This document shows, in pieces, positions 1,714-4,914 of a stretch of DNA of 6,229 nucleotides. Below the pieces are notes generated by a model. The model did not search any database. It had not been told where the DNA came from and was given only the letters and a program-made list of their open reading frames with translations. The position numbers were made by a program, and so were the translations under genes. Where the stretch lies: the IMG/VR virus record IMGVR_UViG_3300029749_000255. The stretch is one strand, 5' to 3'. Position 1 is the stretch's first letter; each line of letters opens with the position of its first letter. This DNA is from a virus. Lineage: Duplodnaviria; Heunggongvirae; Uroviricota; Caudoviricetes.

Positions 1714-3108
1714 ATGCCCCCAAAATATATACCTCGCCCCTACCAAGTTCTCATTATCAACCACGAAACCGAAACCCTGCGCGGCAACATCTGGGCGGGG
1801 ATGGGAATGGGTAAAACCGTGGCAACGCTCACTGCGCTGGAAGATCTCTTTATGGCAGGGGCAGAAACATGCCCCGCACTGGTCCTCGCGCCGCTGCGCG
1901 TGGCTGCCAGCACATGGCCGGATGAAGCACTGAAGTGGGGACATTTGCGCAATATCGAGGTGCAGCCAATTATTGGTAATGCCAAAGCGCGCTCTATGGC
2001 GCTGACGAACAGCAACGCAAGCGTGTTCACCATCAACTACGATAACCTTGTCTGGCTGATTGAAGAATTGGGAGAACGATGGCCGTTCGGTACTGTCATT
2101 CCAGATGAAAGCACCCGGCTAAAATCCTTCCGGCTGCGCGGTGGTGGTAAGCGCGCGGCGGCGCTGGGCAAAGTGGCGCATAAGTATGTCCGGCGCTGGA
2201 TAAATCTCACCGGTACGCCAGCACCGAACGGCCTGGTAGATTTGTGGGGACAATCGTGGTTTGTGGACCAGGGGCAACGTCTCGGGCGCACTTACGGCGC
2301 GTTTACCTCACGCTGGTTCAACTCGATACAGTTTCCGGGGCAGAGCTGGACCAAACTGGAGCCTTTTGCTCACTCACAGGGTGAAATACAGCGAGCGTTA
2401 GCCGATGTAACCCTCTCGCTGGATGCGGCCGACTGGTTCGATATCAAAGACCCCATCCATAACGTAATCCGCGTGGATATGCCACCGAAGGCCCGTCAGC
2501 AGTATCGTGAAATGGAAAAGGAAATGTTCCTCGAGCTGAATGGCGAAGGCATCGAAGCACCGAACGCCGCGGCAAAGACACTGAAGTGTCTGCAAATCGC
2601 CAGCGGCGCAGTATACACAGATGACACCGGAAGTTGGTCAGAACTGCATGACACCAAACTACAGGCGCTGGACAGCATACTGACCGAAGCAGCTGGCGCA
2701 CCTGTGCTGGTTGCTTATCACTGGAAACACGATCTTGAACGCTTGCTTAAAGCATTCCCTCGCGGTCGTCACCTCGACCAGGATCCACAGACACTGCGCG
2801 ACTGGAATTCCGGAAAGATTCCTGTTCTCTTTGCACACCCAGCCAGCGCGGGCCACGGCCTGAACATGCAGGACGGCGGAAATATACTGGTATTTTTCTC
2901 ACACTGGTGGGACCTGGAGCAATATCAGCAAATTATTGAACGTATCGGCCCCACCAGGCAGATACAGGCCGGACACAATCGTCCGGTATTTATTCACCAC
3001 ATTATTGCTGCCGACACTATGGATGAAATGGTGATGGAGCGGCGCAACTCAAAACGAACAGTGCAGGACATCCTGCTCGATGCCATGAAAAAGAGAGGTA
3101 TAGCATGA
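1714..3108 (+). CDS. SNF2-family (DEAD/DEAH-like superfamily 2) helicase, phage-type
   Basis: 464-aa protein with Walker A GMGMGKT (nt ~1798-1818), a DExx box (IPDESTRL), the SNF2-typical motif III LTGTPAPNGL, and a C-terminal helicase domain (HGLNMQ ... QQIIERIGPTRQ). AGGAG at 1700-1704 sits 9 nt before the ATG. GC is high. Confidence 0.9.
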   Translation: MPPKYIPRPYQVLIINHETETLRGNIWAGMGMGKTVATLTALEDLFMAGAETCPALVLAPLRVAASTWPDEALKWGHLRNIEVQPIIGNAKARSMALTNSNASVFTINYDNLVWLIEELGERWPFGTVIPDESTRLKSFRLRGGGKRAAALGKVAHKYVRRWINLTGTPAPNGLVDLWGQSWFVDQGQRLGRTYGAFTSRWFNSIQFPGQSWTKLEPFAHSQGEIQRALADVTLSLDAADWFDIKDPIHNVIRVDMPPKARQQYREMEKEMFLELNGEGIEAPNAAAKTLKCLQIASGAVYTDDTGSWSELHDTKLQALDSILTEAAGAPVLVAYHWKHDLERLLKAFPRGRHLDQDPQTLRDWNSGKIPVLFAHPASAGHGLNMQDGGNILVFFSHWWDLEQYQQIIERIGPTRQIQAGHNRPVFIHHIIAADTMDEMVMERRNSKRTVQDILLDAMKKRGIA

Positions 3109-3305
3109 GCGAGAAACCCGACGATTTACTCACCCCGGATGAAGTATGCCAAAAGTTAGGTATTACACAGAAAACGCTATGTGAGTGGAATATTAAGCAT
3201 CGTCATCGGGCTATCCTGGCACCAATTCGTTTCAGTGCAAAAGTAGTTCGTTATGAGCGCCGAAATATCGACGCTTTTATTCAAAAATGTCGCAGCCAGT
3301 ATTAA
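3105..3305 (+). CDS. AlpA/excisionase-like helix-turn-helix DNA-binding protein (candidate Xis or regulator)
   Basis: 66-aa protein whose LLTPDEVCQKLGITQKTLCEW ... VVRYERRNIDAFI resembles the AlpA/Xis (HTH_17-like) signature (LxxxEVxxxxGxSxxTIYR ... RWxxxDIxxWI). Its start overlaps the helicase stop (ATGA, 3105-3108), with a GAGAGG Shine-Dalgarno at 3093-3098. It lies next to the integrase. Confidence 0.75.
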   Translation: MSEKPDDLLTPDEVCQKLGITQKTLCEWNIKHRHRAILAPIRFSAKVVRYERRNIDAFIQKCRSQY

Positions 3306-4699
3306 CCTCGCCGCCGTAGCAATGCCACCTGCGCAAGTATGCTCCGCTCGTGAGCCTCGAAAGCTTCGCGCTTCAACGCAATCTCTTCCTGTAAAATCTC
3401 ATCAGAAAAGTCGTAATGTTCTGCCATCGGGTCATCTGACTTGCTGGAGTGGTGAAGGCAAAGGAGGCTGATTTCCCTTCGGTCTGAGCGGGAATAGCCT
3501 CTTTCCTTCATCAAGGCAATAACATTGCTCTTAAGGAATTTACGGCACATCGTATTAAATGCACCGTCTTTCCCTTTAACAGTCCCATCATGTTTTATTC
3601 CTTTTACAGCCCCGTCCGGGCTGTATGTTTTCACCAGCTTATCCAGTGATCGTTTTGAAAATGGCTGCATTGGATCACGTGGCTGCAAAAATACATAATC
3701 CCTGTTGCACTCAGGAACTGAATCACGCCAGGCTTTCTGCTCGTCGATAATCCGCCGGATCTCAGGGGTTATCGGCAGGCGGAAAGCCTTTTGTGTTTTC
3801 ATAGCCCCTCGCATGCCGATAACCCCTTCCGGATAAACAATTTCACCAGCCTCCTCGTGAACGTAGTCCCAGCGCAGGTTATGGACATTAATCGGACGAA
3901 CACCAGTGATGATCATGAAGCGAACAGCATTCTTCTGGTGTACAGAGGTGCAGGCAGCAACATTGAGCCAGAGTCGGGCGATTGATTCAATATCGGTAAA
4001 AAGCCGTGTGGGGGTAGGTTTCTGTACGCGGGAGGAAACATAATCATCTGGCAGACTGGCGGCAACATTGCGGCCGTTGCAAAGAGTAGGTGCGCAGAAC
4101 TTCCAGAACCGACGGAGCTCGGCAAACAACTCCAGGGCGTTATTGTTCGAGCGAGTAGCGATCCACTCGTCCAGCACTTCCACCAGCCGATTGTATGTTA
4201 CGTCGCTGAACACCTCGCGCTCGCCGAACGTTGCTTTAATCCGGTCGATACGCACCCCGTAGGTTGTGAAACTGTCCGGGCTCAGCTTCTGCCGGGCGAC
4301 TTTGGCTTTGAGGTCATCCCGGTACATTTCCAGCGCTGCATGTACGGACTCTGCCCGCAGGCCACCGTCAGCCATACCTAGCGCTTTTTCGCGCGCCAGC
4401 TGGATAGCGAGCTCCGGCCACTCGCCGAGCTTTTTACCTTTGAGGCCCATCTTTTTTGGAAACTCGGCGTAAAATGTAACCTTACCGGCTTTGCTGAAAT
4501 CGATACGGAGATAGTTCTCTTTTTCGTATTTGGAACGGCGAGCCACGCCGGAAGCAGCGAGGATGATTTTGGCGGCAGCAACACAGATTTTCATGTGTGC
4601 GCTGGTATAGGGGGGTTTACAGGCGTCCCATTTTTCAGATGCGGCTAAAACATCGTCATTATTGGGGCTATCCGGATTATGTGTTACAGTGCGCGGCAT
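3302..4699 (-). CDS. int: Tyrosine site-specific recombinase (phage-type integrase) with an N-terminal arm-binding-like region
   Basis: Long minus-strand ORF. The C-terminal catalytic region contains a candidate Arg I (ITGVRPINV), a CRKF segment at the HxxR position, LHH (the LGH-like His) and a Tyr 12 residues later (AEHYDF). The N-terminal KYEKENYLRIDFSKAGKVTFYAEF resembles an arm-type binding domain. The ORF track starts at a TTG (4705); I prefer the ATG at 4699, preceded by AAGGA and a 6-nt spacer. Confidence 0.85.
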   Translation of the reverse strand: MPRTVTHNPDSPNNDDVLAASEKWDACKPPYTSAHMKICVAAAKIILAASGVARRSKYEKENYLRIDFSKAGKVTFYAEFPKKMGLKGKKLGEWPELAIQLAREKALGMADGGLRAESVHAALEMYRDDLKAKVARQKLSPDSFTTYGVRIDRIKATFGEREVFSDVTYNRLVEVLDEWIATRSNNNALELFAELRRFWKFCAPTLCNGRNVAASLPDDYVSSRVQKPTPTRLFTDIESIARLWLNVAACTSVHQKNAVRFMIITGVRPINVHNLRWDYVHEEAGEIVYPEGVIGMRGAMKTQKAFRLPITPEIRRIIDEQKAWRDSVPECNRDYVFLQPRDPMQPFSKRSLDKLVKTYSPDGAVKGIKHDGTVKGKDGAFNTMCRKFLKSNVIALMKERGYSRSDRREISLLCLHHSSKSDDPMAEHYDFSDEILQEEIALKREAFEAHERSILAQVALLRRRG

Positions 4700-4705
4700 T
4701 CTCAA

Positions 4706-4914
4706 TCCTTATCTGCGTAGGCGCAGAAAACAAGCACACACATACAAGTCTTTTCTACGGGACAAAATGCAATGTGTTGCGGCTTTGTGTTACTGGACTG
4801 AGTTTATCAAGGTTAAATACACTGGATCAACATACAGTAAGTTAATGACAGTAAAGCATACAAACTCGATACAACTTACTGATTTTTAAAATGATTTAAC
4901 GGTAATTCATTGAA
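4706..4914. promoter_or_regulatory. Divergent intergenic region between int and yfhL with short repeats; likely holds the int and yfhL promoters and possibly the element junction (att)
   Basis: A 9-bp inverted repeat CAGTAAGTT (4835-4843) / AACTTACTG (4873-4881), direct repeats of ACAGTAA (4834-4840, 4848-4854), and a small hairpin CTGCG-TAGG-CGCAG (4713-4726). A TAAAAT -10-like hexamer lies at 4887-4892, before the yfhL start. Confidence 0.35.

Follow-up and report, generated by a model that had tools for sequence, protein, structure and literature searches.

Phage integration within yfhL rebuilds the ferredoxin gene from a phage-borne 5′ end

Phage 21 and e14 are said, from Campbell's work, to integrate in icd with an attP that duplicates the end of the gene, which stays intact. 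Bobay et al. (2013) describe gene-end duplication as a class of prophage sites and list yfhL among the genes 'disrupted' by prophages (PMC3603311). In studies of Escherichia coli strains that produce Shiga toxin (STEC) from 2023 and 2025, yfhL is a site of Stx2b prophages and a 'new' Stx-prophage insertion site (PMC10675304). Integration of HK022 at torS, on the 5′ side of the gene, swaps the native promoters for prophage sequence near the att site, according to Carey et al. (2019; PMC6814406). The Serratia prophage vB_SspS_OS31 (MT843276; Bujak et al. 2020) is described, in the available portions of its report, as flanked by a 23-bp direct repeat and inserted in a 2×[4Fe-4S] ferredoxin gene; it was induced with mitomycin C, the DNA of the induced phage was sequenced, heads without tails were made, and Int and Xis were reported to have no viral homologues (PMC7556043). 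Those portions give the repeat and the interrupted gene, and neither a rebuilding of that gene nor an unusual box II in the integrase. Among tyrosine integrases, the archaeal SSV1-type (R...KxxR...Y) and pNOB8-type (R...YxxR...Y) enzymes are active with the box-II histidine replaced (PMC8371274). Here we analyse a 6,229-nucleotide stretch of DNA (IMG/VR record IMGVR_UViG_3300029749_000255; its full length is called the window) that carries a tyrosine integrase gene (int), a small convergent gene for a putative excisionase (xis) and the ferredoxin gene yfhL. The element is of an ordinary kind and belongs to a published family. Its target gene, the OS31 att site, gene-end duplication and promoter replacement by prophages were all known already from these sources.

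The window is E. coli chromosomal sequence, 100% identical to several ST38-type strains, and very probably represents the int-xis-attR end of a 42.2-kb temperate tailed phage that is integrated in, and rebuilds, yfhL. Its junctions were mapped by three-way alignment of the empty site of K-12 MG1655 (attB), where yfhL follows yfhH after a 55-bp gap, the left prophage end (attL) and the window (attR). Exactly 18 bp are common to all three. This core, AATTGTGATATGTGTGAA, lies at 4945-4962 on the plus strand, encodes yfhL codons 11-16 (N C D M C E) and falls in the first CxxCxxC iron-sulfur motif of the gene. A second copy lies at 17634-17651 of L002, the locus that holds attL; in NZ_CP032145, a genome identical to the window, 42,236 bp separate the two. 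By its type, the integrase would be expected to leave such a short identical core at both ends after recombining attP with attB. Strand exchange must take place inside the 18 bp; by inspection, an overlap region and inverted core-type sites were not discerned within them. To the right of the core the sequence is that of the host, with 2 base differences from K-12 in about 50 bp aligned. To the left (4700-4944) it is unlike the K-12 yfhH-yfhL spacer and shows only a codon-level resemblance to the native yfhL 5′ end.

An earlier note on this DNA, made from the letters alone, had taken the element to be inserted next to yfhL, with the right att junction in 4706-4914. The alignment instead places the insertion inside yfhL codons 11-16 and the core 31-48 bp downstream of the yfhL ATG, and 4915-4944 proves to be phage DNA. 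The note fared better on the character of the site. It had proposed a strain-specific insertion at a non-tRNA target and a comparison with empty sites: that comparison returned the direct repeats described above, the int-xis-P-arm segment is present in 160 of 5426 complete E. coli genomes and absent from K-12, ARAGORN found no tRNA or tmRNA in the window, and both junctions lie in yfhL sequence.

Immediately upstream of the core, at 4915-4944 on the plus strand, the phage carries a surrogate yfhL 5′ end, ATGTCTTTACTAATTACTAAACGCTGTATT, which supplies the start codon and codons 2-10. Compared with the native codons for MALLITKKCI, 11 of its 30 bases differ, giving two conservative changes (A2S and K8R) and five synonymously altered codons; the phage-type start is the ATGTCTTTACTAATTACTAAACGC version and the native start is ATGGCGCTGTTAATCACTAAAAAATGCATC. 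The gene rebuilt at attR (4915-5175, plus strand) encodes a full-length, 86-aa 2×[4Fe-4S] ferredoxin whose codons 1-10 are phage, 11-16 core and 17-86 host. It matches the NCBIfam YfhL equivalog over its full length (E 5e-40), and RefSeq shows a normal full-length yfhL directly after the integrase. Thus the phage integrates within yfhL and rebuilds the gene. The native start (ATGGCGCTGTTAATCACTAAAAAATGCATC followed by the core) is found 42,236 bp away at attL, directly after yfhH, with the native first ten codons at L002 17604-17633. At attL, L002:17604-17660 runs from the native yfhL promoter region, start and 16 codons into phage DNA as an unannotated open reading frame (ORF) of 18 codons. 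Excision is predicted to restore attB as native ATGGCGCTGTTAATCACTAAAAAATGCATC, core and CCCGAATGCC, and the predicted attP consists of window positions 4700-4962 joined to L002 17652 onward. A probe spanning attL matched 5418 genomes, and all but 127 of the matches end exactly at the last base of the core.

The arrangement recurs well beyond E. coli. One genome per species was scanned for relatives. The 36 loci found represent about 20 genera, spread over Enterobacterales, Vibrionales, Alteromonadales and Aeromonadales. A divergent full-length yfhL homologue accompanies int in 35 of the 36; in most, as in the window, about 215 bp lie between the two ATGs, and the spacing reaches up to 750 bp in the most distant members of the clade. 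In Citrobacter, Kluyvera and Shimwellia prophages the P arm (the phage DNA between int and the rebuilt gene) and the surrogate codons are about 90-95% identical to those of the window, and from the core rightward the sequence is that of the respective host. The window shows the traits of the clade throughout: full-length integrase similarity, the T-x-x-R-K box discussed below, a divergent yfhL with a phage-borne start, and the same geometry. In the phage collection the only match was OS31. Within E. coli, the module is always chromosomal and present in one copy per genome, and yfhL lay under the module match in 60 of the 60 records listed among the 160 carriers. At least 80% of the whole window is common to only 37 of these 160 genomes, so the module travels on differing backbones. 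One E. coli copy is damaged (L030; strain ECMA0423, CP178302.1, 3528-3786): its yfhL is frameshifted and its integrase match ends at residue 366, which could reflect real decay or a low-quality assembly.

The int gene (3302-4699, minus strand) encodes 465 aa from the ATG at 4699; a TTG at 4705 would give 467 aa. The ATG is favoured, as homologues begin MPRTVTQ, RefSeq annotates 465 aa and an AAGGA Shine-Dalgarno sequence (plus-strand TCCTT, 4706-4710) lies 6 nt upstream of it. The product scores 30.4 bits against Pfam Phage_integrase PF00589 (cut-off 27.1), over residues 248-361 only, and matches the PHROG 1 integrase family (E 1.5e-26). NCBIfam gave no match, and sequence searches of PDB chains with the protein and with its family profile found no recombinase. 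For the AlphaFold2 models, Foldseek ranked full-length lambda Int first, with the longest alignments, ahead of XerA, Tn1549 Int, IntI, Cre and XerH, each of them at probability 1.0. Deepening the alignment from 23 to 70 sequences raised the predicted local distance difference test score from 82.7 to 87.7, and residues 371-380 remained a low-confidence loop. The models comprise an N-terminal extension of about 50 aa with two helices and a conserved W-E-x-C-K-P-P-Y-T motif, a putative arm-binding domain at about 54-112 folded as a β-sheet with a helix, a helical core-binding domain (119-215) and a catalytic domain (226-465). This architecture suggests a lambda-type, heterobivalent integrase. The earlier note's tyrosine integrase of 465/467 aa thus stands where it had been placed (ORF 3302-4705, minus strand), as does its long N-terminus, which exceeds that of the nearest canonical integrases by about 45 aa. 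Relative to those enzymes of about 405 aa, the extra length resides in the N-terminal extension, an insertion of about 20 aa before box II and a long C-terminal helix. An exhaustive profile search delimits a discrete clade, whose full-length members score E<=1e-49, followed by a gap and then P4-like integrases at about 1e-19. The Alteromonadales members P0077, P0082, P0085, P0089 and P0091 have a further conserved C-terminal tail of about 70 aa (...ENxERxxLRxxIxxxxGKxGYxxFxxS...GR...) that is absent from the enterobacterial members.

The active site departs from the canonical one at box II. Alignments to lambda Int alone were inadequate: hhalign of the family against it reached only Arg-I, and a permissive local alignment covered the full length with low probability. 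An outgroup profile of 32 P4-like integrases (about 405 aa) was therefore built, and profile-profile comparison with it gave a probability of 99.9% and E 3e-36 over 340 columns. R268, K301, H417 and Y429 align with Arg-I, Lys, His-III and Tyr, that is, with P4-like R256, K283 and Y388, which are invariant in the outgroup, and the near-invariant H378; R268, K301 and Y429 also align with lambda R212, K235 and Y342. Residues invariant among 70 family members include R268, K301, K375, G376, F381, T383, C385, R386 and H417, and Y429 is at least 90% conserved. Of the R-K-H-R-H-Y set that the earlier note wished to see aligned, then, Arg-I, Lys, His-III and Tyr are in place and the box-II HxxR is missing: neither the family alignment nor the profile comparison shows one in this integrase or its clade. 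The segment NTMCRKF indeed stands at the HxxR position, as the note had pointed out, and is a trait of the whole clade, shared by each full-length member looked at, whose box II reads K375-G376...T383-x-x-R386-K387 invariantly.

Two registers can be drawn through this box. In the one given by the profile alignment and MAFFT, K375-G376 falls on the invariant H-G of the outgroup and GAFNT on xTFST, which puts the variable residue 378 in the invariant Arg-II column and R386 eight residues downstream. In the other, drawn from spacing and structure, the AlphaFold2 loop spans 361-383 and the box-II helix starts at 384 (predicted helix 384-399), with T383-x-x-R386 mimicking H-x-x-R at the helix N-terminus. 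HxxR normally sits at the N-terminus of a helix. The permissive lambda Int alignment falls within one residue of this second register, and R386 is the only invariant arginine of the box-II region in the 70 sequences.

The P arm of attP (4700-4914) is the 215-bp phage spacer that separates int from the rebuilt yfhL. As xis and int converge, transcription of the early operon would not serve int, which would need a promoter of its own here; the P arm must therefore hold the int promoter on the minus strand and a putative driver of yfhL on the plus strand. Alignment of P arms from 16 diverse elements reveals conserved blocks, among them the AAGGA ribosome-binding site of int (4706-4710). Two putative arm-type Int sites, TGTGTTGCGG at 4773-4782 and TGTGTTACTG at 4786-4795, lie in tandem on the plus strand 13 bp apart and are invariant across the 16 sequences. 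Two more copies of the motif fall within the int coding sequence, in its 5′ part (4680-4689, plus strand; 4576-4585, minus strand). The window contains four matches to TGTGTTRYNG, all within 4576-4795, against 0.23 expected, a count that none of 200 shuffles reached. Another three, in a 36-kb locus for which 1.23 would be expected in total, lie a short way inside attL; these P′-arm sites are at L002 17692 and 17704 and, inverted, at 17746. Of 34 related loci, 29 have the 13-bp-spaced pair, placed about 130-140 bp upstream of the yfhL ATG, and in 24 of them it sits exactly at -141/-128, Shewanella included. The P′ arms of the E. coli prophage and OS31 are also alike, with two direct sites at about +41 and +53, which are degenerate in OS31, and a third, inverted site at about +97. 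We infer that the TGTGTTRY repeats are arm-type sites bound by Int. A near-invariant block, GC(A/T)CACACAT at 4734-4743 (minus strand; ATGTGTG(T/A)GC in the direction of int), resembles both the right half of the core (ATGTGTGAA) and the arm motif, and is possibly another Int-binding site.

A further conserved block is an AT-rich palindrome, ACTG-N9-ACA(G), at 4821-4837, whose ACTG and ACA are invariant in the 16 aligned P arms. Its CTG-N10-CAG core in the window is CTGGATCAACATACAG (4822-4837), with one mismatch in the left half-site (CTGG...ACAG) relative to a LexA box. The palindrome stands at -92 from the yfhL ATG in 12 of 34 loci, eight of which (L007, L009-L013, L023 and L032) have a perfect LexA-box core, CTGT-N8-ACAG. 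In the window alone, CTG-N10-CAG occurs twice against 1.17 expected, no excess over chance, and the block is kept here as a conserved palindrome only. It may, speculatively, be an operator for the int or yfhL promoter, and a palindrome of LexA type could link expression of int or of the rebuilt yfhL to the SOS response.

The gene convergent with int, at 3105-3305 on the plus strand, encodes a 66-aa HTH_17/AlpA-type winged-helix protein, a putative excisionase or recombination directionality factor. It is the AlpA-like protein of the earlier note. The gene closes the rightward early operon, with its start overlapping the stop of the SNF2 helicase gene and its 3′ end overlapping that of int by 4 nt. 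The protein scores 26.0 bits against Pfam HTH_17 PF12728, just under the 27.0 cut-off, and matches PHROG 4745 'DNA binding protein' (E 7e-27) and the excisionase families PHROG 66 and 1553 (E 1e-5); NCBIfam gave no match. It is 69% identical to the annotated excisionase of OS31, and a homologue converges with int in 26 of the 36 related loci, usually abutting it. Its position beside int and the OS31 annotation suggest a possible role as Xis.

Taken together, the data suggest the following sequence of events. A three-domain, lambda-type ('heterobivalent') integrase would bind repeated arm sites (TGTGTTRY) in both attP arms and recombine the 18-bp core of attP with the identical sequence in yfhL codons 11-16, at the invariant CxxCxxC motif. 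Since attP carries an in-frame copy of the yfhL start and codons 2-10 just upstream of the core, integration does not destroy the gene. The native promoter and first 16 codons stay behind at attL as the 18-codon stub, and a full-length yfhL with two conservative substitutions arises at attR, behind a phage stretch of about 215 bp that it has in common with the divergent int. Excision would require Int together with the convergent 66-aa helix-turn-helix protein, Xis, transcribed with the early/replication operon.

Several observations weigh against this account. A promoter scan found no plus-strand consensus sigma-70 promoter facing yfhL in 4706-4914; its only matches near int lie at or inside the int start, and candidates facing yfhL that can be picked out by eye are weak, such as TAAAAT at 4887-4892 without a good -35. 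The canonical HxxR is missing, and the two alignment registers put different residues in its place. One E. coli copy at least, that of STEC383, resides in a deleted and probably defective prophage: a yfhL-integrated remnant of about 20 kb (L043, 1-21839) that has lost most head and tail genes and retains an identical integrase protein (WP_001138334.1), xis and replication genes. In this one STEC carrier, stx genes were looked for in the copy at yfhL and not found. Finally, a Raoultella locus (L029) has an integrase without P arm or yfhL. Its integrase shares 90% identity with that of the window; upstream, at 3400-4000 of Raoultella scottii NZ_JARXNH020000036.1, lie an AlpA-like ORF and repeated GTGAACA/GTGAATAC motifs, and the locus may be a rearranged or recombined module.

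The want of a promoter-like site facing yfhL in the P arm gives some room to the idea that the yfhL-like piece of attP is a by-product, either the remnant of an old imprecise excision or DNA retained solely for Int to bind at the core, and that the rebuilt gene may be silent. In E. coli yfhL is dispensable, which would fit. So would its place among the 'disrupted' genes of Bobay et al. (PMC3603311). The phage-borne codons themselves make this unlikely. Across 31 distinct loci their variation amounts to 0.61, 0.26 and 1.16 bits at codon positions 1, 2 and 3; start codon and reading frame are kept in all 31 distinct sequences; and the Leu, Ile and Cys codons change synonymously. Such a three-base periodicity is not expected from DNA binding alone and is the signature of selection on the peptide, beyond that on a DNA-binding site. 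Moreover, yfhL is intact in 34 of 35 lysogen loci.

The earlier note had also wondered whether the integrase is catalytically intact, and one could take it for a decayed, inactive relic in a cryptic element that was fixed and inherited vertically. The missing HxxR, the copies in deleted prophages and the tailless heads reported for OS31 could all be cited for such a view, which we nevertheless consider improbable. Down to 33% identity, all 70 members have the unusual box unchanged, and T-x-x-R-K is kept even in members only 23-28% identical, a mark of strong purifying selection. Exact repeats flank the prophages at the same codons in many hosts, the module sits there with host-matched cores in about 20 genera and on different backbones (myovirus-like here, a lambdoid siphovirus in OS31), and its low frequency in E. 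coli, 3% of genomes, speaks for repeated horizontal integration. With active archaeal integrases of KxxR or YxxR type documented (PMC8371274), the integrase is probably active, and the suspicion of a dead enzyme finds no support.

What surrounds the module identifies the element as a phage. In NZ_CP032145 about 42 kb of phage genes fill the yfhH-yfhL interval, with structural genes for terminase, portal, head, sheath/tube, baseplate and tail fibres, followed by holin/lysozyme, Q antiterminator, repressor, primase, DNA polymerase, VRR-NUC, SNF2, xis and int; the backbone is myovirus-like and has its own DNA polymerase. An integrative island of another kind (an integrative and conjugative element, a P4-like satellite or a phage-inducible chromosomal island) using a P4-family integrase might be imagined from the nearest canonical integrase relatives, which are P4-like and about 405 aa long, and from the AlpA-type regulator, which is typical of such islands. 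That gene content, the lack of a tRNA target in the window and the mitomycin C induction of OS31, whose induced phage DNA was reportedly sequenced (PMC7556043), render it very improbable. The least credible alternative, an element in the yfhH-yfhL intergenic region beside an untouched yfhL with its junction in 4706-4914, would follow from the RefSeq annotation taken alone, which shows a normal gene right after the integrase, but fails because identity to attB starts only at 4945 and the native ATG with its 16 codons lies 42 kb away at attL.

The remainder of the window holds early/replication genes of the phage and host sequence. A VRR-NUC nuclease gene (434-718) and the SNF2 helicase gene (1714-3108) frame a low-GC ORF of 305 aa (734-1651, plus strand; GC 33-36%), which matches only PHROGs of no assigned function and gave no match in Pfam and NCBIfam scans; its residues 54-134 weakly match a PADLOC TIR effector (E 1e-6). 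The neighbouring prophage gene just left of the window (L001:19169-19930) encodes a TIR protein that matches PDC-S35, a candidate defence system (E 1e-108). The content of this slot differs among prophage copies: STEC383 has DUF6338 together with a hypothetical gene, and other copies have Rha/Arc or a cytosine methyltransferase. It looks like a cargo slot for defence genes or morons. To the right of yfhL follow shoB, ohsC (5775-5851, the sole Rfam match in the window) and acpS. The run of N at 5508-5536, between shoB and ohsC, masks ordinary sequence, aaactgaacgtgcgagttattgagggt as read from the identical genome, and is no biological feature.

These findings leave the basic picture of phage integration unchanged and call for a new reading of the yfhL hotspot, where the gene is rebuilt rather than destroyed, although phage DNA takes over its promoter, start and first ten codons. 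A junction set at the yfhL ATG, whether in gene-presence tables, in pangenome calls or by prophage-boundary tools, is therefore off by 31-48 bp. In the literature as far as consulted, we did not find it stated that yfhL is rebuilt with a phage-borne 5′ end, that this holds clade-wide in about 20 genera, or that the clade lacks HxxR. An integrase clade with a single, highly conserved coding target across four gammaproteobacterial orders could serve as a site-specific integration tool, with attB ready in many Gammaproteobacteria, and offers a natural test of whether the canonical HxxR is dispensable in tyrosine recombinases. A bolder reading, less likely than not, is that the clade consists of active lambda-like integrases with a rebuilt active site, in which HxxR, together with Arg-II at its homologous column, was lost and K375 and/or T383-x-x-R386-K387 took its place, and that every lysogen expresses YfhL from a phage ribosome-binding region and N-terminus and a phage promoter that shares control with int. 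If so, that shared control, through the arm sites of Int and a LexA box present in some lineages, would let lysogeny and SOS status alter ferredoxin expression.

OS31 is among the closest known systems. Its integrase is 76% identical to that of the window and has the box GAFNTMCRKF, and its xis likewise converges with int. The OS31 record starts with the annotated 23-bp attachment site, whose reverse complement is yfhL codons 9-16, preceded by ATGGCTTTACTAATTACAAAGCGG, a surrogate start next to int in the genome of a free phage; attP is thus organised as here, with a surrogate yfhL start and a core over the CINCDMCE codons beside int and a similar layout of arm sites. OS31 differs in its Serratia host, in a 23-bp core with Serratia codon choices, and in an unrelated, lambdoid siphovirus backbone where the phage of the window is myovirus-like with a DNA polymerase. 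Lambda shares with the present module the three-domain integrase fold (best PDB matches 1z1b, 5j0n and 1z1g), arm repeats in both attP arms around a short core, and a small DNA-binding directionality factor encoded beside int. Unlike lambda Int, the integrase described here has an N-terminal extension of about 50 aa, an insertion of about 20 aa before box II, no HxxR and no sequence-level PDB match; its xis is convergent with int, whereas that of lambda is co-directional, and attB lies inside a coding sequence.

The nearest canonical relatives are the P4-like integrases of about 405 aa, with a DUF4102-type arm domain and an HGFR box. They have an invariant H348 and R351 where the clade has K375 and a variable residue, with R386 eight residues later. 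P4-like integrases usually target tRNA genes, whereas this clade targets yfhL. The SSV1 and pNOB8 types keep Arg-II at its canonical spacing, but in this clade the Arg-II column is uncertain; they are archaeal, and the present enzymes are bacterial, lambda-like and of three domains. As in phage 21 and e14, attB lies in a conserved coding gene, the phage supplies a substitute gene end and the length of the ORF is kept; those elements replace the 3′ end, whereas here it is the 5′ end, so that phage DNA takes the place of promoter, ribosome-binding region and start codon alike. For HK022 the prophage promoter was mapped and a phenotype shown, whereas at yfhL, as read from the sequence, codons as well as the promoter are replaced.

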